Source: Candidatus Hermodarchaeota archaeon (GTDB taxonomy: Archaea; Asgardarchaeota; Hermodarchaeia; Hermodarchaeales; Hermodarchaeaceae). From it: a stretch of DNA of 64,000 nucleotides. A program made the position numbers and the translations under genes. Every line of letters starts with the position of its first letter. Within the stretch, counting starts at the first letter, position 1. Shown here piece by piece: positions 38,325 to 60,830 of this stretch. The notes under the pieces are model-generated. The model was not told the DNA's origin. It searched no databases and saw only the letters and a list, made by a program, of their open reading frames with translations. The stretch covers positions 64,001-128,000 of the forward strand of contig JAEOTO010000031.1 in NCBI GenBank assembly GCA_016839805.1, in the 5' to 3' direction.

Positions 38325-39287
38325 CTAGAAATCAATAGCTAATTGGAGTTCACGGACTAATTCTTTGTAGCGGTTTCGGACAGTGACTTCGGTTACCCGG
38401 GCCACCGCTGCGATTTCGCGTTGGGTCCGGCGTTCACCCTCCATGATAGCTGCAATATAAAGAGCTGATGCAGCAAGACCTGTAGGATCTTTACCAGCAG
38501 TAATTCCCTTTGCTTTGGCAGCATCAAGGATTTGGATAGCATTTCGCTGTACGCGGCTACTTAATCCGAGAGATTGAGAAAACCGTGGAATGAAGTTTGT
38601 CGGTTGAGAGACTGGCATTCGAACATCTAATCGTCTAAGCAGGAGACGGTAACATCGACCCAATTCTTTACGGTTAATTCGACTATGATACGCAATTTCG
38701 TCCAAGGTACACGGAGCTTCTCGAAGTCGACAAGCAGCGTACATAGCAGCGGCTATCATTGCATCAATACTACGACCTCGAATAAGTCGCCTTTCCAAAG
38801 CTCGGCGATACATCACAGCAGCGGTATCCTTCACGGTTCGAGATACACCTAGCTGACTGCTAAGACGATCTAATTCACTCATTGCGCTCGCAAGGTTGCG
38901 CTCAATACTTGAATGAACACGTGATCGACGCTGCCACTTGCGAAGCCGGTAAATTTCTGCACGTCGATTAGAATTAATTTGACGACCAGATGCGTCACGG
39001 TTACGCCAGTCAATCATAGTACTGAGATCATGATCCTGAAGAGCATAATTAATAGGACTACCTGTTCGGGCGCGTTTATCCCGTTCCTCACTGGTGAAAG
39101 CTCGCCATTCGGGCCCAGAATCTATGGCGTTAGTATCTAGAACTAACCCACAATTCGCGCAGGCGACTTCCCCACGACTCTCATCACGAATAGCATTAGT
39201 CGCACCGCAATCCGGACAGCGCTGGTGCTGCTGCTCCTCAAGGAAGTCGAGCCGATTTTTTTCATGAATTGGAGAATTTTCTTCCAT
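38325..39287 (-). CDS. tfb: Transcription initiation factor B, paralog 2
   Basis: CPDC/CANC Zn ribbon, GPEWRAF, GRS, GKDP.G, VTEVTVRNRYKE. Confidence 0.96.
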   Translation of the reverse strand: MEENSPIHEKNRLDFLEEQQHQRCPDCGATNAIRDESRGEVACANCGLVLDTNAIDSGPEWRAFTSEERDKRARTGSPINYALQDHDLSTMIDWRNRDASGRQINSNRRAEIYRLRKWQRRSRVHSSIERNLASAMSELDRLSSQLGVSRTVKDTAAVMYRRALERRLIRGRSIDAMIAAAMYAACRLREAPCTLDEIAYHSRINRKELGRCYRLLLRRLDVRMPVSQPTNFIPRFSQSLGLSSRVQRNAIQILDAAKAKGITAGKDPTGLAASALYIAAIMEGERRTQREIAAVARVTEVTVRNRYKELVRELQLAIDF

Positions 39288-39566
39288 AACACATTCTTCC
39301 TACTATTATATGGAAAGGACAGGTTAGGAGGTACGGTCCTTTGTATCAAGGTGTCAAAATGCTTCCGAGTTACCCTGACGGTCCAAATGGACGTAATGTG
39401 GTAAGGCATCTAGCGGTAGATAGCAAAGTTCGCCGCGATTCTCATTGATAACCTTATAAACTTTCCCATTTATTTACTAGTAAAACAAATATTTAAGTGT
39501 TTGCCTTTTCGTTTCCACCTCAAACTGCACTAGGTTCGCCTGAGAAGCCGTCGAGGGCCGCTTTTG

Positions 39567-40535
39567 TCAAATTTCGACTTCAAGCCCAAGGACGCGAACC
39601 ATTTCCTTGTAGCGGTTTCGGACAGTGACTTCGGTTACCCGGGCCACCGCTGCGATTTCGCGTTGGGTCCGGCGTTCCCCTTCTTGGATTGAGGCAATAT
39701 ACAGCGTAGAAGCTGCGAGTCCCGTGGGGTCCTTGCCCGCAGTGATGCCCCGTTTTTTAGCCAAACCAAGGATGCTGATAGCCCGACGTTGAACACGACT
39801 ACTGAGGCTGAGTGCCTGGGCAAATCGTGGAACGAAATCGGTAGGTTGAGAGATTGGTACACGCATATCGAGCTTTCGTAAGAGGAGTCGATAGCACCGA
39901 CCCAATTCTTTGCGGTTAATTCGACTATGATGGGCGATTTCATCAAGAGTTCGAGGAACTTGACGCAGACGGCAACCAGCATAGATGCATGCTGCAATCA
40001 TTGCTTCGATACTGCGTCCACGAATGAGATGACGTTCGACCGTGCGACGATATAAAATCGCAGAAGCTTCTTTAACGGGTCGCGGAGCGCTAAGCTGACT
40101 AGTAATACGGTCTAATTCACTCATAGCCCGAGCCAAATTCCGATCAATGCTTGAATGCACACGTGTTCGAATTTGCCATTTTCGGAGCCGATATATTTGC
40201 GCCCGAAGTCCCGGAGCTAATTTACGACCATTCGCATCTCGATCTCGCCAGTCAATGGTGGTACTCAAACCCTTATCATGACGTGTATAATCAATAGGAC
40301 CACCAGTTCGGGCACGCTTATCGCGTTCTTCACTCGTAAAGGCACGCCATTCAGGACCATGATCCATCATATGGGAATCAAGAACTAATCCACAATTGGT
40401 GCAAATGACTTCACCACGAACAGGATCACGAATCGTATCGGTACCCCCACAATCTGAGCAACCTACGATAATCTCCGTGGGTTCCCGAGATCGTTGGGTG
40501 CGTGCATATGAACCGGTTTGAGCAGGATTTGCCAT
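39567..40535 (-). CDS. tfb: Transcription initiation factor B, paralog 1
   Basis: CSDC/CTNC Zn ribbon, GPEWRAF, RLRKWQ, VTEVTVRNRYKE. Confidence 0.96.
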   Translation of the reverse strand: MANPAQTGSYARTQRSREPTEIIVGCSDCGGTDTIRDPVRGEVICTNCGLVLDSHMMDHGPEWRAFTSEERDKRARTGGPIDYTRHDKGLSTTIDWRDRDANGRKLAPGLRAQIYRLRKWQIRTRVHSSIDRNLARAMSELDRITSQLSAPRPVKEASAILYRRTVERHLIRGRSIEAMIAACIYAGCRLRQVPRTLDEIAHHSRINRKELGRCYRLLLRKLDMRVPISQPTDFVPRFAQALSLSSRVQRRAISILGLAKKRGITAGKDPTGLAASTLYIASIQEGERRTQREIAAVARVTEVTVRNRYKEMVRVLGLEVEI

Positions 40536-46418: not shown

Positions 46419-48083
46419 ATGAAACGTGAACCGATTCGAGCCTACCGTGGTACCAAATTACATTGTAAGAATTGGCAGATCGAAGCCATTATTCGTATGC
46501 TCCAAAACAATTTGGATCCTGATGTGGCGAAGGATTGGGAGAATCTCATCGTGTATGGTGGCATCGGTCAAGCGGCTAGGAACTGGGATTGTTTCGATAA
46601 GATTGTGGAAACGCTGCTTGAGCTAGAGCCCGATGAAACGATGTTGGTTCAGTCTGGTAAGCCTGTCGCAGTTTTTAAGACCCACTCGGATGCGCCGCGT
46701 GCCCTCATCGCGAATTCTTTAATCGTTCCGTTCTGGGCTACTGAAGAGAACTTCCATAAGCTGTACAAGCAGGGCTTGACCATGTTCGGACAAATGACCG
46801 CAGGGTCCTGGATTTACATCGCGACTCAAGGAATCCTTCAAGGAACCTTTGAAACCTTTGCCGCAGTCGCAGACCGTCATTTTGGGGGTACTCTGAGAGG
46901 GAAACTGACACTCACTGGTGGCGTTGGAGCAATGGGTGGTGCACAACCATTGGCAGTTACATTCAATGAGGGCGTGGTCATTGCTGTTGATGTTGATGAA
47001 GCTGCCATCGATAAGAGGATGCGCGCCGGTTATTGTGAATTGAAAACTGATAGCCTTGACGAAGCGATATCCCTTGCTGAAGAAGCATTAGAAAAGCAAA
47101 TTCCCCGATCAATCGGGTTGGTCGGTAACACTGCTGAAACACACCCTGAAATCGTCAAACGTGGAATCAAAATAGATGTAGTAACCGACCAAACCGCCGC
47201 ACATGACCCATTAACAGGGTATTATCCAACAAGATATAGCAAGGAAGAAGCAGACCAGTTGCGAGAAAAGGACCCTGAGGACTATATTCGCCATTCGAAA
47301 GAGTCAATGCTCCACCATGTCAAGGCAATACTTCAACTCCAAGAACAAGGAACGATAGCGTTTGATTACGGGAATAACCTTCGGCAGCATGCAAGGAAAA
47401 TTGCTTGGGATGAGAAAAAGAACCGATGGAAGTATCCAGGTTTTGTCGAAGCGTATATTCGTCCGTTGTTCTGTGAAGGGAGGGGCCCCTTCCGATGGGT
47501 TGCTTTGTCCGGTGAACCTGCTGATATTTACAGAACGGATGATTTGATTCTCGAACTCTTCCCTGACAATAACATTTTGAAACGCTGGATTAAACTAGCA
47601 CATGAAAAGGTGCAGTTCGAAGGACTTCCTGCCCGGGTGTGTTGGCTTGGATATGGTGAACGGGCTAAGTTTGGCAAAGCTCTCAACGACTTGGTAGCAA
47701 GTGGAGAACTGAAAGCACCAATCGTTATCGGTCGTGACCATCTTGATGCCGGTTCTGTAGCTTCCCCGAATCGTGAAACAGAAAGCATGCGTGATGGTAG
47801 CGATGCGATTGCTGATTGGCCTGTATTGAATGTCCTTATCAATGCGGTCGCAGGGGCTACCTGGGTATCGCTGCATCAAGGTGGAGGTGTGGGCATTCCC
47901 TATGCTATCTCTGCTGGGCAAGTTTCAGTTGCAGATGGCACCAAAGAAGCTGAAAGAAGGTTACTTCGGGTGTTGACTACAGATCCTGGGATGGGTGTTG
48001 TTCGCCATGTTGATGCTGGGTATCCAGAAGCGATTAGTTTTGCCAAAAAACTGGGAATGAAAATCCCCTTTCTTAATCCATAG
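46419..48083 (+). CDS. hutU: Urocanate hydratase
   Basis: [46 protein letters not shown]. Confidence 0.97.
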
Positions 48084-48085
48084 AG

Positions 48086-49045
48086 ATGGTGAGATATACG
48101 ATGGAACGAATTGTTGAATGTGTACCGAATTTCAGTATTGGTGATGATGCAAAAACCATTGAGATGATTGTGAATGTTATTCGTCAAACTGAAGGCGTCT
48201 ATTTGCTTGATTATGAACACGATACTGCCTATAACCGATTAGTGGTAACTTATTTCGGTGAACCGGAAGCCACCAAAAAGGCTATGCTTAATGCAGGACG
48301 AGTCGCCGTCGAACGCATTGATATGCGGAAACACCAGGGTCAACACCCTCGTATCGGAGCTTTGGATGTTGCTCCATTTGTGCCTATTAAAAACATCACT
48401 GTCGAAGAATGTATCAACCTGTCCAAGGAATTTGCTAAGGCTTTTGCAGAAGAGCACAAAGTTCCCGTGTATTTGTATGGTGAAGCAGCTGAAACTCCGG
48501 AGAAAGGGGATGTGGATTGGATTCGTAAGGGTGAATGGGAAGCTCTTGCGGAGAATATGAAAGACCCGGAGCGAAAACCAGCTTTTGGCCCAGTAAAACC
48601 ACATCCTACTGCTGGAGCTACGATGACTGGTGCCCGAGAAGTCATGGTCGGGTTAAATATCAACCTAGGGACTACGGATCTCCGTATCGCAAAAGCTGTG
48701 GCAAAAGCGATTCACCGGAAGAAGGGAGGATTAGTACGAATCAAGGCAATGGGCTGTCTATGGGAAGACCGAGGAATTACCCAAATAGGGATTACGAACA
48801 CCGATTTTCGTAAATCACCGTTATATCGACAGATGGAATTAGTTAAAATCGAAGCCGCCCGATATGGAGTTCAGGTTGTTGGTGCTGAGTTTTGTGGACT
48901 CGTACCAATTGACGCACTAGTTGATGTAACCAATTACTATCTTCGACTTGAAGGATTCTCAAAATCGGATTTGCTAGAAGTCGCCATTGACCGAAAACTT
49001 GCAGAACTCAACCCAAAACACGCTAGCACCATCTCATGTAAATAA
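48086..49045 (+). CDS. ftcd: Glutamate formimidoyltransferase (FT domain only)
   Basis: VECVPNFS, NRLV.T, IDM..H.G.HPRIGA.DV.PF, PHPTAGA. Confidence 0.92.
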   Translation: MVRYTMERIVECVPNFSIGDDAKTIEMIVNVIRQTEGVYLLDYEHDTAYNRLVVTYFGEPEATKKAMLNAGRVAVERIDMRKHQGQHPRIGALDVAPFVPIKNITVEECINLSKEFAKAFAEEHKVPVYLYGEAAETPEKGDVDWIRKGEWEALAENMKDPERKPAFGPVKPHPTAGATMTGAREVMVGLNINLGTTDLRIAKAVAKAIHRKKGGLVRIKAMGCLWEDRGITQIGITNTDFRKSPLYRQMELVKIEAARYGVQVVGAEFCGLVPIDALVDVTNYYLRLEGFSKSDLLEVAIDRKLAELNPKHASTISCK

Positions 49046-49076
49046 AGTGGCTATTTAATAGGCTCAAATACCTTGT

Positions 49077-50354
49077 TTGGTAACAATGACACGTTTACAA
49101 TTAGACATGGTCATTTTAAACGCTGCAGAACTTCTCACGCTTGCAGGAGCAAGCCATACTCCTAAACTAGGCAAGGAAATGAATGAGTTGGGGATTATCG
49201 AAGATGGTGGTGTAGCGATCCGTGGGAACCAGATCGTAGCCGTGGATACCACGAAGAACATCAAACGTCTCGTCAAACCAGGAAGTCATCCACAGATTAT
49301 TGATGCGACAAATAAAACCGTTTTACCTGGCTTAATTGACCCTCACGCTCATCTAGCCTTCGCTGGGAGCCGAGAACGGGAATTTGTACAAAGACTTCAA
49401 GGCGCAACGTATATGGAAATCCTCGAAGCGGGTGGAGGAATCAACGTCACGGTCAAAGCTACCCATAAAGCTAGACGAAGCACCTTGGTTCGACTAAGTC
49501 AACAAATTTTGAATCGAATGCTCGAATATGGCACAACTACAGTTGAAGGAAAATCAGGTTATGGCTTAGATCCAAAACACGAATACAAACAATTGCTAGC
49601 TATCCGTGATTTGAACCTAATTCACCCTATTGATGTGGTACCCACGTTTATGGGAGCTCATGTCGTCCCACCGAAGTACAAGTATTGCTCCGAGGAGTAT
49701 GTCAAACTTGTTATGGAAAAGATGATTCCTACCGTGGCAAAAAAAGGGCTTGCGGAATTTTGTGATGTTTTTGCTGAACAAGACGTTTTCACAATCGATC
49801 AAGCACGGCGCATCCTCAATCAGGGTAAAAAATATGGGCTCATTCCAAAAGTGCATGCCGACGAGATGACTACACTTGGAGGAGCGGAATTAGCCGCAGA
49901 AGTCGGTGCAATATCCGCGGATCATCTCTTAAAAGTCTCGAATAAAGGGATCCAAGCCCTCGCAAAGGCACAAATTGTCGCGGTATTATTGCCCGCAACG
50001 GCGTTTGTACTCATGGAGAAGGAATATGCCCCCGCAAGGAAACTAATAGATGCAGGGGTTCCAATTGCTTTGGCCACCGATTTTAATCCTAATTGTATGA
50101 CAGAGTCAATGCAATTAGTAATGACCCTCGCTTGTTTGAATATGCGTATGACCCCGGCTGAAGCCATCTCAGCTGCAACGATTAATGCAGCCCATGCGAT
50201 AAATCGAACACATATTGTAGGAAGTTTGGAACCCAATAAACAAGCAGATATCCTAGTGGTGGATGCACCGAATCACGCTTATATTCCATACCATTTTGGT
50301 GTTAATCTGGTCAATACGGTCATTAAAAGTGGAAAAATCGCTTTTTCTTGTTAA
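49077..50354 (+). CDS. hutI: Imidazolonepropionase
   Basis: PGLIDPH.H..F.G.R..E, GTTT.E.KSGYG, MGAH, KVHADE, SADHL, ATDFNP. Confidence 0.96.
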   Translation: MVTMTRLQLDMVILNAAELLTLAGASHTPKLGKEMNELGIIEDGGVAIRGNQIVAVDTTKNIKRLVKPGSHPQIIDATNKTVLPGLIDPHAHLAFAGSREREFVQRLQGATYMEILEAGGGINVTVKATHKARRSTLVRLSQQILNRMLEYGTTTVEGKSGYGLDPKHEYKQLLAIRDLNLIHPIDVVPTFMGAHVVPPKYKYCSEEYVKLVMEKMIPTVAKKGLAEFCDVFAEQDVFTIDQARRILNQGKKYGLIPKVHADEMTTLGGAELAAEVGAISADHLLKVSNKGIQALAKAQIVAVLLPATAFVLMEKEYAPARKLIDAGVPIALATDFNPNCMTESMQLVMTLACLNMRMTPAEAISAATINAAHAINRTHIVGSLEPNKQADILVVDAPNHAYIPYHFGVNLVNTVIKSGKIAFSC

Positions 50355-51927: not shown

Positions 51928-54900
51928 ATGCGGGTCTCTAACTCGTGCAAGTACGCGATAATATTAGCCATCATTATATTCCTTACAATTCCATTAACAT
52001 CGTTTAATGGCACCATGTTCTTAAACAACACTACTGATTTGGCTTCAACAAATTTAAACATGAGAAGAGCGCCGATTCTACCAGGACCCGATTTAGGCAT
52101 ATCCAATTGGACCTCCAATCGATTTCAGAACCCAGAGTTCGAAGATTGGACTACTCCAACTGAATGTGACGGATGGGATAAGGTTACTAGTCCGGATCGC
52201 TTCCACTGGGCGGCACAAACCCCATATCCGGTAAATGAAGGAACCTACTCAGGTGGAGTGCAGATCAGAGATACAACTGCCACAGCAGACCTAAAACTGA
52301 TGCAAAACTCCATTGGTGCAGATATGTCAAATCTTAGCCTCTCCTTTGATTGGTACTTAGATCAGGTTAGCGATCCCTCTGTGGATTTCCTAAGACTTGA
52401 AATTATAATCGTGGATACTGGACCAGGTCCTGATTACAATATCTATTATTACCTAAATGATACCGCCGTTGGATTTTTCAATCAGACCCTCGTCGCTCAT
52501 TATATCATTAATGATCCACCCCATCAATGGAACCTCTTCAGTCGTAATATTACAGACGATTTTGTACAGGTTCCATCATTTCCTGGGTCAGTTTGGTCAT
52601 CGCTTGAAGTGGATGAAGTTAATATCTGGATGAGGGCCGCAGACCAGTCCACACAGTATGTTCGTGTTTTTATTGACGATATGCGATTGATCAATGCGAC
52701 CAATAACCATGGATGGGTTAACCAGACAATACGCAACGGTAACTTTGAGACCGGCGATCTAACTGATTGGAGTTTTGAATCGCCTAATACGAATCAAGGG
52801 TTTATAGAAAGTAGCACAACTGCGATTTCAGGAACTTTAAGTGCTAACGTCACAGCGAACTCGTTAGGGAATGAGAGCTTCGTTTATTTCCTCGATGCTC
52901 CAGAAGCTCGATTAACTAGTTTGAACCCAGGCATTATAAAGTTTCAATGGCATCTTGAACTTCAAAATCCCAACGAAAACACTCTGGCTTTAATTCATTT
53001 AAGGTGTCATGACGGAATTAGCAGTGTTCACATATATTATCTTCTGACATATTATATGGAAGTTAGTCCCTACCAAAATACGACAAATCAACTTGCTATT
53101 CACGTCGATAATTTCAACACCACAGGTAGCTGGAACTCCTTTGCACGTAACATATGGAACGACGCTATAGGGTCCTTTTCCGGAAACGAAGTTCACGTCG
53201 ATTTCTTTGAAATAGAAGTTCATGCCGAAGGGTACAATTCACAAACAGAACTCTTAATTGACCAATCCTCTCTCCGAGCGGCAGCAATTAATGGAGCTGG
53301 TTTCGAAGACCAACCCGCTGTAGGTTCACGCGTTCGGGGCTGGTATCGAACGTATTCAACTTTTCTTGTTACTGATGAAACACAAGCTGATGGTGGGCTT
53401 AAAGCAGCCAACTTGACGTTAGAAAGCGGATCCTTTAATCTCTATCAGACCATGCAATGGAGACCATTGAATGCTACACGGGAAACCTACTTAGATGTAA
53501 TGTGGAACATCAACGATACTGTAGCAGCGAATCAAGTTTGGTTCCGCCTTTCATTAAATGATGGAACCGAACTTAATTACTACATGAATGGACCAGCAGA
53601 GGGCTCCAACTCAAGTACGGAAGCCCACTTCAATGTCACCAGTTTTGGCACCACTGGTTCGTGGATTCAAATGCACCGTGATCTCAATCACGATTATGAA
53701 TCCGTTTTCGGTTCATTGCCCAATACCAGGATGGAAAGACTTTCCCTTCGAGCCGATACTGCAGGAGGTGGTCGACTAGAAATCCTTTTCGATGACTTAT
53801 ACATGTATGATGATCCTGCACCACGCATTACCAATGTTGCCCATGATCCTGTTAACCCTGGTATACTTCAAGATGTGAACGTGACCGCCGAAGTTGTGGA
53901 TCAAGACCTTACTCTTGTCGAACTGGATTATCGCGTCTATATTGGCAGTTGGAGTGGTTGGACGAATATCGAGATGGACTACTTAGCTGGTGATACATAT
54001 AATGCCACCATTCCGGGACAAGTATCAGGTGCAGTTGTCCAATATAATATCTCAGCGACGGATGCATGGGGATTGACAATTGTCTCCTTGGATAATGGCA
54101 ACCCGTGGAGTTATACAGTTGAAGATGTAGACCCACCAAGTATCAATAGTGTTGAGCAAGATCCTACAACAGTAAGGTACACCAATACAGTTGATGTCAC
54201 GGCAAATGTGACGGATGGGGGACTTGTTTCTAGTGTCAAGTTATTCTATACCACAAATGGATGGACAACCTCCGATAATTTCACAATGACTCATACTACC
54301 GGAGACCTTTTTGAAGCTACGATACCAATGCAGAGCTATGGGACCACAGTCCAATATTATATCAATGCCACTGATTCAGCAGATAATTGGACTGTTGATG
54401 ATAATGGGGGCAGTTATTACAGCTATACCGTCATTGATGACATAGATCCGGTTATAAGCGATGTAAGTCATTCTCCGGACCCTGTGGAATATGATGATTC
54501 ACCAATTACCATTACCTGCACTGTTTCCGATCCAGGAAGTGGAGTTGTCACAGTTACATTATATTACAGCACCGATGGATGGGCTTCCTCGAATCCCGTT
54601 ATCATGACAGGTACAGACACCTATACTGGAAATATTCCGGGTCCATATGCCACGGGAACAACTGTCTTGTATAACATCTCAGCCACTGATGGAGCAGGTA
54701 ATTCATTTCTCGATGACAATGGCGGGATTTCATACAGCTTCGCTGTTGAAGATAATACAGACCCACAAATTACTAATGTGGGTCATTCTCCAGATCCTGT
54801 GGAAGCTGATGATGTAGACGTGACCGTGAGTTGTGATGTTATAGACCCAGGTAGCGGAGTCAACACTGTCACTCTGTGGTACCGACTTGATGGGGGTACT

Positions 54901-57021
54901 TGGACCTTATTAGTAATGACACACACCACTGGTGACCAATATCAGGTTGATATTCCTGCCCAATCATTTGGAACTTTTGTCGAATATTATATTGTGGCAA
55001 CAGATAATGCAGCCAATAGTGCAACAGAGGACAATGGCGGCAGCTATTACAGTTATACTGTTACAGATGCGACACCACCATTGATTTCTAGTGTCAGTCA
55101 TACACCGACACCTGTTGAATACTCTGACAGCCCAGTAGTCGGGTGTGATGTCACGGACACTGGTAGTGGTGTCAACACAGTTATCCTCTACTACCGGGTG
55201 AACGGCGGTAGTTGGTTTCAAGTGATAATGGGCTACACCACAGGCGACCGCTATGAGGGGACTATCCCCATGCAGTCTTGGAATGACATCGTGCAGTTTT
55301 ATATCAATGCCACCGATAACATGGACAACTGGACTGTGGATGACGATGGCGGCAGCTATTATAGTTATACGGTTCAGGACAATACCGAACCCATTATCAA
55401 TAATATAGACCGAACTCCTAACAATGTTGAATACACCGATACTCCAGTAGTGAGTTGTGATGCTTCCGATGTGGGAAGTGACATCAATCAAGTCCGATTA
55501 CGATATCGAATCAATGGTGGTGCGTGGACATGGGTAACCATGACTCACACAACAGGTGACACCTATGAATACACGCTTTCCCTCTATGGCTATGACACGC
55601 TGGTTGAGTACTATTTTGAAGCCCGGGATAATGCCTTGAATGTCGCAATCGATGACAACGGTGGAAGTTACTACAGCTATCGTGTTGGTGACTACACCGA
55701 TCCAGGTATTAGCAATGTTGATCAGACACCCACCATTGTCGAGTACGATGATAGCCCTGTAGCAGGTTGTGATGTCACCGATGCAGGAAGCGGTATTAGC
55801 ACCGTCGTCTTATACTACCGCGTTGATGGCGCTGGATGGCTCCAAGTAGTGATGAGTCACACTGGAGGTGATCACTATGAAGCCTCGATACCCATCCAGA
55901 GTTGGAACAGCGATGTCGATTATTACGTGAACGCAACCGATGTCGCAGGGAACTGGGTAGTCGATGATGACGGGGGAGCTTACTACAGCTACACTGTCGT
56001 GGACAACACCGACCCCATAATCAGTGGCGTAAGTCACACTCCACTGGTCGTCACTCCCTTTGATCCTGCAGTGGTTGGGTGTGATGTATCCGAACTAGGT
56101 AGCGGAGTTAGTTCAGTCCAATTACATTATCGTGTCGACGGAGGCACTTGGATTATTGTTGTTATGAGTCATACCACTGGCGACCACTATGAAGGTACTA
56201 TTCCGGCGCAGGTATTGGACAGTTTCGTTGAATATTATGTCAATGCAACGGACAATGCTGCAAATAACGCTGTTGACGATAATGGTGGTACCTACTATAC
56301 CTATACGGTGGGTGATACAGTCTCGCCTGAAATTTCCAATGTAGGTCATTCTCCTTCACCTGTTGAGTATGATGATAGTCCAGTTGTAAGCTGTGATGTC
56401 GTTGATATCGGGAGTTCCATTGCAAGTGTAGTGTTAGCCTACAGGCTAGATGGAGGAGCATGGGCTTATGTCTCGATGACACACACCACTGGTGACCGCT
56501 ACGAATACACGCTTCCAATACTATCCCTGGGAACTTTGGTTGAGTATTTCATTAACGCGACCGACATCATGGATAATTGGATTGTGGATGACAATGGCGG
56601 CAGCTATTACAGTTATAGTGTGATTGATACCACGGACCCATCAGTGAGCATTACTTCACCTGATGCGGATGCCATTGTAGCTGGGTTAATCACTATTGCA
56701 ATGAGTGCCACGGATCCTGGTAGTGGAATCGCTCGAATCGAAATATTCGTAGATGGCACCGAAGTTGCTGAGCTCACAAGTCAACCGTTTAATTATTCGT
56801 GGAATACAATGCTGGTGCTGGATGGGGAGCATACTATTACAGTGACTGCGTATGACTATGCGGATAATCAAGCCACAGATTCGATTGATATTGTCGTTCT
56901 TAATTTCCCAACTTTTCCGTCACCCGTCCTAGTTTTTGCCTTCGTGGCAATAGTTCTCACTCTTGTGATTGCCCTCGTTGGTGTTCTCGTGTACAGGCGT
57001 CGAAGAAAAAAAACTAGCTGA
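51928..57021 (+). CDS. Large cell-surface glycoprotein: jelly-roll/CBM-like N-terminal domains, 9 Ig-like repeats, Big domain, C-terminal TM anchor
   Basis: Signal peptide; NPEFE/NGNFE/GAGFE domain starts; 9 repeats of ~104 aa ending DD.GG.YYSY.V; TM followed by RRRRKK. Confidence 0.85.
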   Translation: MRVSNSCKYAIILAIIIFLTIPLTSFNGTMFLNNTTDLASTNLNMRRAPILPGPDLGISNWTSNRFQNPEFEDWTTPTECDGWDKVTSPDRFHWAAQTPYPVNEGTYSGGVQIRDTTATADLKLMQNSIGADMSNLSLSFDWYLDQVSDPSVDFLRLEIIIVDTGPGPDYNIYYYLNDTAVGFFNQTLVAHYIINDPPHQWNLFSRNITDDFVQVPSFPGSVWSSLEVDEVNIWMRAADQSTQYVRVFIDDMRLINATNNHGWVNQTIRNGNFETGDLTDWSFESPNTNQGFIESSTTAISGTLSANVTANSLGNESFVYFLDAPEARLTSLNPGIIKFQWHLELQNPNENTLALIHLRCHDGISSVHIYYLLTYYMEVSPYQNTTNQLAIHVDNFNTTGSWNSFARNIWNDAIGSFSGNEVHVDFFEIEVHAEGYNSQTELLIDQSSLRAAAINGAGFEDQPAVGSRVRGWYRTYSTFLVTDETQADGGLKAANLTLESGSFNLYQTMQWRPLNATRETYLDVMWNINDTVAANQVWFRLSLNDGTELNYYMNGPAEGSNSSTEAHFNVTSFGTTGSWIQMHRDLNHDYESVFGSLPNTRMERLSLRADTAGGGRLEILFDDLYMYDDPAPRITNVAHDPVNPGILQDVNVTAEVVDQDLTLVELDYRVYIGSWSGWTNIEMDYLAGDTYNATIPGQVSGAVVQYNISATDAWGLTIVSLDNGNPWSYTVEDVDPPSINSVEQDPTTVRYTNTVDVTANVTDGGLVSSVKLFYTTNGWTTSDNFTMTHTTGDLFEATIPMQSYGTTVQYYINATDSADNWTVDDNGGSYYSYTVIDDIDPVISDVSHSPDPVEYDDSPITITCTVSDPGSGVVTVTLYYSTDGWASSNPVIMTGTDTYTGNIPGPYATGTTVLYNISATDGAGNSFLDDNGGISYSFAVEDNTDPQITNVGHSPDPVEADDVDVTVSCDVIDPGSGVNTVTLWYRLDGGTWTLLVMTHTTGDQYQVDIPAQSFGTFVEYYIVATDNAANSATEDNGGSYYSYTVTDATPPLISSVSHTPTPVEYSDSPVVGCDVTDTGSGVNTVILYYRVNGGSWFQVIMGYTTGDRYEGTIPMQSWNDIVQFYINATDNMDNWTVDDDGGSYYSYTVQDNTEPIINNIDRTPNNVEYTDTPVVSCDASDVGSDINQVRLRYRINGGAWTWVTMTHTTGDTYEYTLSLYGYDTLVEYYFEARDNALNVAIDDNGGSYYSYRVGDYTDPGISNVDQTPTIVEYDDSPVAGCDVTDAGSGISTVVLYYRVDGAGWLQVVMSHTGGDHYEASIPIQSWNSDVDYYVNATDVAGNWVVDDDGGAYYSYTVVDNTDPIISGVSHTPLVVTPFDPAVVGCDVSELGSGVSSVQLHYRVDGGTWIIVVMSHTTGDHYEGTIPAQVLDSFVEYYVNATDNAANNAVDDNGGTYYTYTVGDTVSPEISNVGHSPSPVEYDDSPVVSCDVVDIGSSIASVVLAYRLDGGAWAYVSMTHTTGDRYEYTLPILSLGTLVEYFINATDIMDNWIVDDNGGSYYSYSVIDTTDPSVSITSPDADAIVAGLITIAMSATDPGSGIARIEIFVDGTEVAELTSQPFNYSWNTMLVLDGEHTITVTAYDYADNQATDSIDIVVLNFPTFPSPVLVFAFVAIVLTLVIALVGVLVYRRRRKKTS

Positions 57022-57079: not shown

Positions 57080-58945
57080 CTAAAACTTGAAGCCTTTCAC
57101 TTGTGTACGAGTCGATTCAATTATTTGACGTGTGTGTACAAGCTGCCAAATCCGGTTGATATCTTGATGCACTAAGAAGTCGTGGGATAACCGATCCTTG
57201 CTTGTTTTATTCCGTTCGGTGTATCGGGGAACGACTTTTCTAATAACGTCATATGTAATTTGTGAACCAAGCCCGAGGGTTATGGGTTTTCCTAATCTGC
57301 GGATATCGATTCCTTGGATGGCACAGAGCAATTCGATGGCAATGATATGTTCCACATTGGATACGATTTCACGTGCTTGTCTGGCGGAGATTGTGCCCAT
57401 GCTGACATGATCTTCCTGGTTGGCTGCCGTGGGAATAGAGGTAATACTTGCCGGTGTGCAGAGGGTCTGACATTCAGCCAAGAGAGCCGCCGCAGTGATG
57501 TGAGCAAGACCTAGACCAAAATAGACTCCTTGATCTGCAAGTGTTGGATGCACTAGAAGAAGGGGAAGCCCATTACTCAGTTTATTATCGATTAATCTTG
57601 CGATGCGGCGTTCAGCAATGCTTGCAATACTAGTTATGGCGATACCAAGAAAGTCCATAGCCAAGGCAATTGGTTGACCGTGAAAGTTTCCTCCAGAAAG
57701 AAATGTCTTTGAGGTAGGAAAAATCAGTGGATTATCAGTTGCTGAATTCATCTCAATAGTAATGGTTTGTTCGGCAAATAAGATAGCATCTCGGACTGCA
57801 CCTAACACCTGGGGTGTACATCGGATTGAGTAGGCATCCTGTACACGCCGAGTTTTTTGAGCCATCTCGATAGCCGCATCAATCGCTTGAGGAGAAACAC
57901 CCAGTGTCTTAAGGTGTTTTATGACGCGATTTCGTTTTGCCTTCAAGAGATTTGCCGACTTTGGTGGTTCAACTGGTATTTGTTGATCGATTGCGAGAAT
58001 TGTGTGGATGGTTTCGCTCAGGATTGATTCTAAAGCTTCATGTTCTTCTTGGGAGTCCTGGGGAAGTGTGTCATGAAAGTGACTTGTTGCTTTTTCTGCT
58101 TCATCTGCACGTTGTTGAGAGGTTAGCACTTGTGTGCTTCCCGTGAGGAGCGAGGTGAGGTTTTGTGCTGTTTGTAGTTGTCCAGAATGTGGTCGTAATT
58201 GATTTATGCGCGGATCAAAGGCATCAAGAACTCCTTCGAGAGCTTCAATTGATAGGGCCGCAGCGATTTCCGCCGTTCCGAGAAGAGCTTTGGCATCGGA
58301 TATAGCTAGCGCGGCAAGTGCAGTCATAATTTGGGTGCCATTGATGAGTGCAATTCCCTCTTTGGCTTCTAATTGAATTGGTTTAAGACCCGCTCGTTTC
58401 AAAGCCTCTGCTCCAGGGAGGATTTCCCCATTATATTCGGCTTCTCCTTCACCAAGAAGAACTAGAACCATATGAGAGAGCGGGGCCAAGTCACCACTTG
58501 CACCCACAGAGCCCTTTTCGGGTATTATGGGGTGCACTCCGTTGTTAAGAAGGTCAACGAGGAGCTGTAATGTTGAGAGTTGAATTCCCGAATGTCCTTT
58601 TACCAGCGTATTAGCTCGAAGTAGCATGGCAGCGCGAACCACTTCTATGGGAAGTGGTGCCCCAACTCCAGCTGAGTGACTGATGATGAGGTTGTGTTGC
58701 AATTTTCGGGCTTTATCACTAGAGACAATAACTTCACTGAAGGGTCCAAAACCGGTTGTTACACCGTAAATAACCTCTCCAGATTCCATCCATTGTTGAA
58801 CTAGTTTTGCTGCTCTTTCAACTTTAACCTTAGCTTTGGGCGATATAGACACATTTCCTCCATTACGTGCTATGGTAACTAATTGCTCAATCGTAAGAGT
58901 TTCACCATCAAGTTCGATTTTTTTTCTGCTCATCTTCTTCACCAT
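57080..58945 (-). CDS. hutH: Histidine ammonia-lyase with an internal insertion
   Basis: YGVTTGFG, SH specificity pair, GSVGASGDLAPL (MIO), QDAYS.RC, GGNFHG, NQEDHVSMG. Confidence 0.95.
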   Translation of the reverse strand: MVKKMSRKKIELDGETLTIEQLVTIARNGGNVSISPKAKVKVERAAKLVQQWMESGEVIYGVTTGFGPFSEVIVSSDKARKLQHNLIISHSAGVGAPLPIEVVRAAMLLRANTLVKGHSGIQLSTLQLLVDLLNNGVHPIIPEKGSVGASGDLAPLSHMVLVLLGEGEAEYNGEILPGAEALKRAGLKPIQLEAKEGIALINGTQIMTALAALAISDAKALLGTAEIAAALSIEALEGVLDAFDPRINQLRPHSGQLQTAQNLTSLLTGSTQVLTSQQRADEAEKATSHFHDTLPQDSQEEHEALESILSETIHTILAIDQQIPVEPPKSANLLKAKRNRVIKHLKTLGVSPQAIDAAIEMAQKTRRVQDAYSIRCTPQVLGAVRDAILFAEQTITIEMNSATDNPLIFPTSKTFLSGGNFHGQPIALAMDFLGIAITSIASIAERRIARLIDNKLSNGLPLLLVHPTLADQGVYFGLGLAHITAAALLAECQTLCTPASITSIPTAANQEDHVSMGTISARQAREIVSNVEHIIAIELLCAIQGIDIRRLGKPITLGLGSQITYDVIRKVVPRYTERNKTSKDRLSHDFLVHQDINRIWQLVHTRQIIESTRTQVKGFKF

Positions 58946-59063: not shown

Positions 59064-60680
59064 TTAGTTTTTCTTTTGGAGAGTGATCTCTATTTCGCTT
59101 ATTCCTCCCCATTTAGATTTTTTTCCTGTGGGGTAGTAAGTATCAATTTGTATAGCTTCTTCGTCCATTGTAAGATCGGGTTCATATTTAGTTCTCAGGA
59201 GTTCAGCAACATCCACAGCGCGGTAAATCAGTCGACCTCGGGCCTTAATTGTTACTGATTGATTTTTCTTTATTTGACTAATGCACGCCCAAACGTAGTC
59301 CATCAATCGTTTTTTCCCAACGAATATGACGTCTTTCAACCAAAATCGTTCGAGGAGTTGCTGATCACGAAGAGCTTCTTCTGTAGGAGTGGGTACTTTT
59401 TCTGAGACAGCCTTTGTGACAAGAGTTGGTTTTTCCTCTGGAAAAGGTTCTTGTGTTGGTATAGGGACTTTTCGTTCGATCTTTTCGATTCTAGGTAATG
59501 TTGAAAATCCAAGAATTTGTGGACTTACCATTTCCCCAATATCCATTGGAACAGCTTCATCTTCTTCTTGTTCGGGAATTGAAGGCGGCTTTTCAGGTTC
59601 TTTACTTTGGTATACATCGAGTTTCTTAATTTCTTGCTCAAGAGCTTCTAAAGTGAAGCGTTTCCTGGGCTGCCAACTGTCGATACGCTCAAGAATGGCT
59701 TGAATTAAATCTGGATTCTTTGTGAAAATTCCTGCCTCATCCCTAGAATTCCAACTCTCGGTTGTAAGATTTTGCGAGGAGATAATTGCTGCCTCTTTAT
59801 CGACAATTAGACAATTTGCATGTAAATTAGGACAAGATTCGATAAGTATCCGATTGGACAATAACATTTCAAGCGCTTCAGGATCTGATTGTTCATTCAC
59901 CCAGTGTTGCCAATCAACCCAAGTAATAAAACGAGCTTGAACTTCATCAGAGATTGTTTGTAAAATGACTTCCGCAACATCATTTGTAATATAGGGAGAT
60001 ACTAATAACACGAATTGCCGAGCGGAAGATAACAGGTCTATGACTAAATCATTTAGACCATTCGAGGTATTGATGAAGACACTTTTGCTATTTCGGGGTA
60101 AAACGGAGGAAAGAGAATACCTTTGTTTATCTTGAGGATAATCTGAATATTCATCAGTAAATGCCAGAAAATACGCCCTTGCCTCCTTCACGAGCTTTCT
60201 TTGCTTTGATACGATTACAAGATCACGGAGAGTTTTTAGATCCCTTGTTATGAAATTTGCTGAACCCACCGCAACTGCTTTCTCTGTTAACATCAATTTG
60301 AAATGAATCCTGGGTCGATTGGCAATCTCAACCTCTAAATTCTGAACTCCGGAAATACCTTTAACCTGCTCAGCATCTATTTTGCTTCCGAGAATTATCC
60401 GAAATCGAAGGTAGTCAGCAGCGTCATTAAGAAGGGCTGATACTAGCTTTTTCTCGATACGGGGAAAGGCGAGCCACAAATCTTTTTCTGCTAAGTCAAC
60501 CATTGAAGAATACTCAGGTCCAATAGCGTGCTCTGCTAAATATACCAGGGATTTTCGTTCCAACTCCTCAGGAACAGAAAGTATCATTTGTATAAATGGA
60601 ATGATTTCCTCCTTGAACTCCATAAATATCATGAGAATTACAGAACCAATGATTAGCGTCATGAAGATCGCGGGAAACAT
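59064..60680 (-). CDS. TM - PLD - PLD - linker - Alba fusion protein
   Basis: IHFKLMLTEK..VGSANF; VSPYIT; LHANCLIVD...ISSQNLT; Alba VIFVGKK..MDYV, IKARGR.I.RAVDVAE, SEIEI.L. Confidence 0.8.
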   Translation of the reverse strand: MFPAIFMTLIIGSVILMIFMEFKEEIIPFIQMILSVPEELERKSLVYLAEHAIGPEYSSMVDLAEKDLWLAFPRIEKKLVSALLNDAADYLRFRIILGSKIDAEQVKGISGVQNLEVEIANRPRIHFKLMLTEKAVAVGSANFITRDLKTLRDLVIVSKQRKLVKEARAYFLAFTDEYSDYPQDKQRYSLSSVLPRNSKSVFINTSNGLNDLVIDLLSSARQFVLLVSPYITNDVAEVILQTISDEVQARFITWVDWQHWVNEQSDPEALEMLLSNRILIESCPNLHANCLIVDKEAAIISSQNLTTESWNSRDEAGIFTKNPDLIQAILERIDSWQPRKRFTLEALEQEIKKLDVYQSKEPEKPPSIPEQEEDEAVPMDIGEMVSPQILGFSTLPRIEKIERKVPIPTQEPFPEEKPTLVTKAVSEKVPTPTEEALRDQQLLERFWLKDVIFVGKKRLMDYVWACISQIKKNQSVTIKARGRLIYRAVDVAELLRTKYEPDLTMDEEAIQIDTYYPTGKKSKWGGISEIEITLQKKN

Positions 60681-60830
60681 ATTTCGTAAGGTCTCCCAGT
60701 GGCTGGAAATTCAGACCCCATAAGGAAACATGTCATTTATTTATTTTTGGCAAAAATGTGACATTTGACCCACTTTTTCACTTCTTTCCATTTTTTGCTG
60801 TTTTTCGGAAAAAACGCCCAATGTCTTGCA

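Follow-up and report, generated by a model that had tools for sequence, protein, structure and literature searches.

The gene at positions 59064-60680 of the window, i.e., of the 64,000-nucleotide stretch of Hermodarchaeota DNA analyzed here, raises the question of what a hydrophobic helix, two phospholipase D (PLD) repeats and an Alba domain do when they are joined in a single chain. An earlier note on this DNA had described this architecture, with a Pro/Glu-rich linker ahead of a complete Alba domain, and had proposed, first, an active membrane-tethered nuclease and, second, a catalytically altered tether. The order helix-PLD-PLD-linker-Alba is borne out by the open reading frame, Pfam and structural modeling, as well as by homologs and dN/dS. 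The frame is single and unbroken, encodes 538 amino acids and lies on the minus strand, as do all features of the gene and its upstream region given below. In Pfam, the protein matches PLDc_2 in two places (E 3.8e-23), and aa 451-503 match Alba (E 4.4e-13; 49.2 bits against a cut-off of 25). For the whole protein, AlphaFold2 predicts a helix at residues 3-21, two PLD repeats, a disordered stretch at residues 364-449 and an Alba fold. The motifs quoted in the note match the protein sequence exactly, and the linker that it placed at ~59350-59620 is close to the stretch of low pLDDT at ~59346-59603.

A join of this kind could be an artifact, with a PLD gene and the cellular alba fused by chimeric assembly or read-through; the probability of this is negligible. 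Twenty-two full-length homologs from several sources (45-78% identity) all carry PLDc_2 together with Alba. Because they share this architecture, the fusion is no chimera, and the concern raised earlier, that homologs might never carry Alba, is settled. Their record names are Ca. Hermodarchaeum yapensis, Hermodarchaeota and Promethearchaeota MAGs, and all those that can be placed belong to the Asgard genus Ca. Hermodarchaeum. Also against an artifact, a separate, canonical cellular alba gene with a Lys/Glu-rich tail is found 75 kb away in the same genome, and the fused Alba domains form a long-branch clade of their own (support 100/100), separate from host Alba. A search for shorter forms returned one 248-aa protein on a 1.2-kb contig, which is not evidence of a split gene.

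The first PLD repeat (aa 42-185; 60126..60557), recognized by Pfam and in the model, is the faster-evolving of the two (mean pairwise identity 47%); the second (aa 198-340; 59661..60089) is strongly conserved except at its catalytic residues (69%; dN/dS 0.07-0.20). Modeled alone, the pair attains a pLDDT of 91.5 and matches two-domain PLDs with a Z of 29.9 (rmsd 2.9 Å, 300 residues aligned). Structure prediction has therefore returned the PLD folds that had been assigned earlier, and in this model the two repeats are a single pseudo-dimeric unit of the PLD superfamily fold. The best PLD matches of the query in NCBIfam are the nucleases DrmC, DpdK and NucT, all under their cut-offs, and a search of the ESM Atlas gave generic PLD clusters only. 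Membership of DrmC and DpdK was rejected (30.9 against 133 bits and 25.1 against 100 bits, respectively, with an ABC pair and hutH as neighbors), as was that of the cardiolipin synthases (no profile match, and a broken motif 2).

Is the active site of this unit complete? In the query, motif 1 (60255..60305) is intact, with H126-F-K128, E133 and GSAN at 139-142, and motif 2 (59769..59822) consists of H287-A-N289, D294 and SSQN at 301-304. That is, the second motif is without its Lys, as had been read from the sequence. We aligned the query with its 22 homologs (n = 23); Asn takes the place of this Lys in 23/23. Motif 1 is eroded in the family as well, with His kept in 20/23, Lys in 18/23 and Asn in 15/23. 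At the His position of motif 2, 13 members have His, and the others have Glu (4), Tyr or Asn (2 each), or Cys or Met (1 each); the entropy of this column is 1.91 bits, and the flanking residues L286, A288, N289 and D294 are invariant. Not one of the 23 members has all six core residues (two His, two Lys, two Asn), the query having five of the six, and at least one catalytic His is missing in 11/23; member P0013 is without one His and both Lys. In the closest relative (78% identical), His126 is replaced by Asn, an observation that comes from one assembly and might be a base error.

The gene is under purifying selection. Between the query and its closest relative, dN/dS is 0.23 over the whole gene, with 0.24 and 0.20 for the PLD repeats and 0.10 for the Alba domain. 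A second pair gives 0.22 and 0.07 for the PLD repeats and 0.06 for Alba, values that are rough because synonymous sites are near saturation. (The comparison of loci for dN/dS, starts and upstream elements leaves out L041.) Over the 23 sequences, Alba and PLD repeat 2 are equally conserved. Judging from the alignment, what selection keeps is the fold and not the chemistry, and the query itself is probably catalytically dead; some residual activity is possible, because both His, one of the Lys and most of the remaining site residues are still present in the query and in 11 other members.

These results bear directly on the lead proposal of the note, i.e., that the protein is an active nuclease or phosphodiesterase, tethered to the membrane and directed to its target by the Alba domain, at least in the subclade with both His. 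The query does retain H126, K128, N142, D153, H287, N304 and E315, and both His are present in 12/23. However, the missing motif-2 Lys is a fixed feature of the family, and in PLD3 mutation of the equivalent Lys (K418) alone leads to a complete loss of activity (PMC10783504); the loss of His126 in the closest relative, if not a base error in that one assembly, points the same way. With no complete site among 23 sequences and a His column that varies among fixed neighbors, we consider an active enzyme unlikely. The second proposal, a catalytically altered tether, fits the evidence best among those of the note. The same catalytic losses apply to another reading, in which the protein acts on membrane lipids in the manner of the cardiolipin or phosphatidylserine synthases and the Alba domain is an accessory. 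Such an enzyme is suggested by the N-terminal anchor and two PLD repeats, a layout like that of cardiolipin synthase, and by the presence of lipid-acting PLDs among the top fold matches, but the fold rank reflects this two-repeat layout only (11-16% identity), and no cardiolipin synthase model in NCBIfam matched the query; we regard it as very improbable.

The Alba domain (aa 446-538; 59067..59345) is a divergent paralog of host Alba according to Pfam, TIGR00285, trees and the model. It covers the whole TIGR00285 model (aa 450-536) with 67 bits against an equivalog cut-off of 88, and is therefore complete but divergent; solved Alba structures match it at E 1e-13. The Alba motifs GKK, IKARGR and RAVDVAE are present in the query, as are equivalents of all the residues by which Sulfolobus Alba is reported to bind RNA, namely K16, K17, Y22, R42 and R44 (PMC7498313). 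In the family (n = 23), K16 is found in 21 members and K17, Y22 and R42 in 23 each, the equivalent of R44 is Arg or Lys in 15, and the equivalents of the dimer-core residues I46 and V50 are kept in 23/23. The net charge of the domain is +4 to +10, compared with +2 in the core of host Alba. The R59/F60 surface, which Alba requires for cooperative binding (PMC11167270), is another matter: at the F60 position, 9 of the 23 have Phe, 2 have Tyr and 12 have another residue, and the R59 position is never Arg. From these residues, the domain looks functional but not filament-forming. Assignment to canonical Alba1 was rejected on this surface and on the 67 versus 88 bits.

We also modeled the fused Alba domain in complex with host Alba. 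The model, in which the two chains meet in the canonical interface, reached a score of 0.83, whereas the best control had 0.00; contacts agreed to at least 95%, and the partner pLDDT was at least 83. In Alba dimers, this interface is built from helix 2 and strands 3-4; the mark for such models is attained by 58/80 solved and 2/110 mismatched pairs. Because solved Alba dimers exist, the model shows likeness only and not binding. The heterodimer with cellular Alba put forward in the note is structurally plausible to that extent, its pass coming solely from likeness to solved dimers. Alba/Sac10b proteins, among them those that form Alba1-Alba2 heterodimers, and the fused domain are alike in their complete fold and in K17, Y22, R42 and the dimer core, and the model pairs the fused domain with host Alba in the canonical way. 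They differ in that the fused domain is the C-terminal part of a 538-aa protein with a putative anchor, has Tyr in place of Ser47 in all members, forms a WGG turn in its hairpin, and does not conserve the Phe60/Arg59 surface, as in Alba2-like paralogs. The cellular Alba of this genome (L031:1423-1875; G000 C21 ~199,000) has a 58-residue N-terminal tail rich in Lys, Glu, Ala and Pro, the frames of congeners being similarly long, and this tailed protein may be a target of modification.

The N-terminal hydrophobic helix (aa 1-22; 60615..60680) is, by hydropathy and the helix model, a probable single membrane anchor. Mean hydropathy over 19 N-terminal residues is 2.46 in the query and 2.35-2.94 in homologs with a full start. 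The same MFP start is found in the DNA of all full-length loci checked, and six homologs that seem to have no helix look like late start calls, the DNA of the checked loci having the full start. Within the helix, dN/dS against the closest relative is 0.08, from few sites. Because no basic N-region precedes the hydrophobic helix, a signal anchor appears to fit better than a cleaved signal peptide. The linker between the PLD pair and Alba (aa ~360-445; 59346..59603) is acidic, rich in Pro and Glu, variable in length and predicted to be disordered (pLDDT <50), with one short conserved motif near aa 387-392. Upstream of the gene, comparison by eye of seven distinct loci revealed three conserved elements: a BRE/TATA-like A/T-rich box at 60736-60750, a 10-mer at 60703-60712 and, at 60693-60697, a stretch of purines that resembles a ribosome-binding site. 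Together these elements, whose combined pattern occurs once in the genome, span 60693..60750 and suggest that the gene has its own promoter. The 10-mer, which follows the TATA-like box and precedes the start codon, is kept in seven divergent loci despite near-saturated synonymous sites, and is a possible start-site or regulator-binding element.

Where might a broken enzyme of this type come from? Among 1.84 billion representatives searched with a profile, we found eight sister proteins (E 1e-35 to 1e-47), with both His and both Lys in 8/8. These rare archaeal tandem PLDs are the nearest relatives outside the family, and the names of their sources include Bathyarchaeota and Nanoarchaeota. The sister clade rests on ten cluster representatives, and a word-based search with one of them, P0030, returned only P0030 itself; no relative of P0030 was found in phage records. 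The ends of the sister proteins vary: at the N-terminus there is a winged helix, a coiled coil or beta repeats, and at the C-terminus several domains occur. Two of them, P0027 and P0030, end in Alba, so PLD-PLD-Alba exists with an intact site too. A HerA-like ATPase gene adjoins five of seven sister loci, four of which also have a NurA or NurA-like gene, and methyltransferase, AbiEii-type, MazE and DpdA genes lie near some of them; two of the cassettes are close homologs and hence not independent. From these contexts we infer that the sisters are defense or DNA-processing nucleases with swappable targeting domains. That they look fully active, and that two carry Alba, speaks for activity in the Hermodarchaeum protein as well; but the sister-type HerA partner was not found in the 15 genomes of the genus.

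Sister loci L050, L051, L052/L053, L056 and L009 combine a HerA-like ATPase, a NurA-like gene (weakly supported in L051, by short motif matches only) and an intact tandem-PLD gene with variable termini, and they are a candidate for an undescribed archaeal module. In two of these loci, L052 and L056, the three follow directly on one another, with an overlap between the PLD and ATPase genes. At L009:903-1460 and L055:2594-3135, a membrane-anchored beta-repeat ORF (PEGA-like, by a weak match) stops just before the sister PLD ORF, and in these two different assemblies the beta repeat seems to run on in another frame, as though the junction were an inherited split or a programmed frameshift. The hydrophobic helix of this ORF is loosely like that of the Hermodarchaeum protein.

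In the PLD tree, the Hermodarchaeum family is not nested inside the sister clade. An AU test rejects neither a single Alba fusion shared with the sister fusions (p-AU 0.119) nor an Alba domain drawn from the host lineage (p-AU 0.388). Because the trees leave the sister group unresolved, descent from an intact HerA-associated form is argued from motif polarity and similarity and not from the tree. A defense origin of the ancestral nuclease is probable. Among known systems, HerA-NurA and HerA-partner defense modules, DISARM DrmC and DpdK come close: the intact sisters are found next to HerA-like, NurA-like, methyltransferase and toxin genes, and there are the weak DrmC and DpdK profile matches. 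The Hermodarchaeum gene, by contrast, has no such neighbors and lies among housekeeping genes. The reading that we prefer, with our confidence evenly divided for and against it, is that the protein descends from a HerA-associated tandem-PLD nuclease, is now dead, and has been kept as a membrane-anchored binder of nucleic acids.

How firmly is the gene kept? Among 400 genomes of the phylum, the PLD-pair profile was found in seven genomes of the genus and in one other, G027. In all cases with assembled flanks, the gene has an ABC ATPase/permease pair on one side and hutH on the other. Its GC3 (0.34, with 0.37-0.39 in the neighbors) is near that of its surroundings and hence gives no clear sign of recent transfer, and a pattern scan of IMG/VR found no viral relatives. 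Of the 15 genus genomes, seven have the PLD part, one has the Alba end at a contig edge, two (G001, G008) have stop-ridden Alba remnants at the locus, and three (G007, G011, G014) have a clean deletion, with the permease directly adjoining hutH; the remaining two were left unassigned. In the remnants (L066:1138-1476 in G008, L064:1330-1443 in G001), the PLD part is deleted and an Alba-only pseudogene is left. According to the permease tree, there have been three to four independent losses, with moderate support. The gene is thus dispensable, five congeners having lost it, and is therefore no core chromosome anchor. The remnants, the deletions and the repeated losses would all be expected of a slowly decaying relic of an acquired defense gene with little or no present function. 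Yet copies have stayed intact although synonymous divergence is near saturation, the folded domains of the two closest pairs have dN/dS of 0.06-0.24, and the upstream elements are conserved; we take a relic to be quite improbable.

Non-enzymatic roles of PLD-fold domains are known from TrmB, TrmBL2 and FAM83, which match the fold with a Z of about 13-16 (TrmB/TrmBL2 12.6-13.1). TrmB and TrmBL2, an archaeal regulator and a chromatin protein, likewise pair a DNA-binding domain with a PLD-fold domain that is without catalysis, and by this analogy the Hermodarchaeum protein probably works like TrmBL2. TrmB, however, consists of a winged helix at the N-terminus and a single PLD-like domain and is not anchored; the DNA-binding domain here is Alba, and the TrmB family models of Pfam and NCBIfam gave no match on the query. 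The analogy could be carried further, to a membrane-bound one-component regulator: a small ligand, held in the dead PLD pocket, would govern whether Alba binds DNA, with the neighboring ABC exporter or hutH genes as possible targets. The sugar-binding domain of TrmB has the same fold (Z 13.1, rmsd 2.8, 128 aligned), PLD repeat 2 is as conserved as Alba, and the position between the ABC pair and hutH is constant. But this synteny is what descent within one genus would produce, the neighbors persist unchanged where the gene is deleted, the pocket residues vary, which would be odd for one ligand, and Alba is not known to read sequence. A regulator of this kind is rather unlikely.

For the membrane-anchored binder that we prefer, the following mechanism can be envisaged. 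From its hydropathy, the N-terminal helix would sit in the membrane with the rest of the protein in the cytoplasm. The PLD pair would cleave nothing and serve as a scaffold, an oligomerization unit or a phosphate-binding module, and the ~85-aa disordered linker would give the Alba domain its reach. This domain would dimerize with itself or with host Alba and bind DNA or RNA without sequence specificity. Because the Phe60 dimer-dimer surface is absent, Alba filaments would be capped or joined by it and not lengthened. The net effect would be to hold an Alba-coated chromosome or RNA at the membrane, in an accessory, non-essential role. In its most specific form, the proposal is that a HerA-linked defense nuclease, from an undescribed module of HerA, NurA-like and tandem-PLD proteins with swappable nucleic-acid-binding ends, became a membrane tether for chromatin or RNA through heterodimers on host Alba filaments; taken jointly, this is tentative, and we judge it possible but doubtful. 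If true, the tether on host Alba would be a prokaryotic counterpart, in function though not by homology, of the proteins that tether chromatin to the nuclear envelope.

Two further groups of proteins resemble this design. BfiI, NgoAVII R and the PLD-wH proteins Aba4572I and CbaI also combine a PLD fold with a nucleic-acid-binding module (PMC11037411), and BfiI and NgoAVII match the PLD pair with a Z of 15.2 and 13.8, respectively. The intact sisters with their swappable ends fit this pattern; the Hermodarchaeum protein differs from BfiI-type enzymes in its two repeats per chain, its broken active site and its putative hydrophobic anchor, and in that a non-specific Alba domain stands where those enzymes have a reader of sequence or methyl marks. 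Zucchini/MitoPLD and PLD3/PLD4 have a single N-terminal membrane segment followed by a PLD fold, the layout predicted here as well, and PLD3/4 also have two repeats in one chain (PLD4 fold match, Z 28.5), but these proteins have complete HxK sites, no Alba, and 11-18% identity to the Hermodarchaeum protein.

The note had not recognized the architecture, and in the literature that we searched, mostly without subscription papers, no paper was found that joins the Alba domain, phospholipase D and archaea. For Hermodarchaeia and Alba we found only unrelated work, and in the papers on Asgard chromatin and defense that we consulted no mention of such a fusion. The parts are known, and their combination is apparently undescribed and testable. 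Little is known of how archaeal chromosomes or transcripts are attached to the membrane, and the Alba described so far is small and soluble; if Alba can also be anchored there, perhaps paired with its cellular counterpart, it would offer a simple, testable route to such attachment. The family also records a stepwise route to a pseudoenzyme, from intact sisters through a fixed loss of Lys and then losses of His to deletion at the same locus. Neither the intact HerA-linked sister clade nor the repeated loss in the genus was visible from the single sequence on which the note was based. Because the gene is confined to one uncultured genus among the 400 Asgard genomes searched, and is often lost there, it has little bearing on eukaryote origins.

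Other features of the window were noted in passing. Positions 46419-50354 and 57080-58945 hold a histidine-utilization cluster (urocanase, formiminotransferase, amidohydrolase, hutH), inside which lies the gene of a 1697-aa Ig-repeat surface protein (51928-57021), as in some relatives but not in L040. HutH (57080-58945) has 621 aa and, compared with the ~505-aa family, an insertion of ~90 residues at about aa 280-365; its homologs in the genus have 617 aa. Two neighboring ORFs at 38325-40535, each of ~320 aa and with zinc-ribbon motifs in the N-terminal part, look, by eye, like tandem TFB paralogs.
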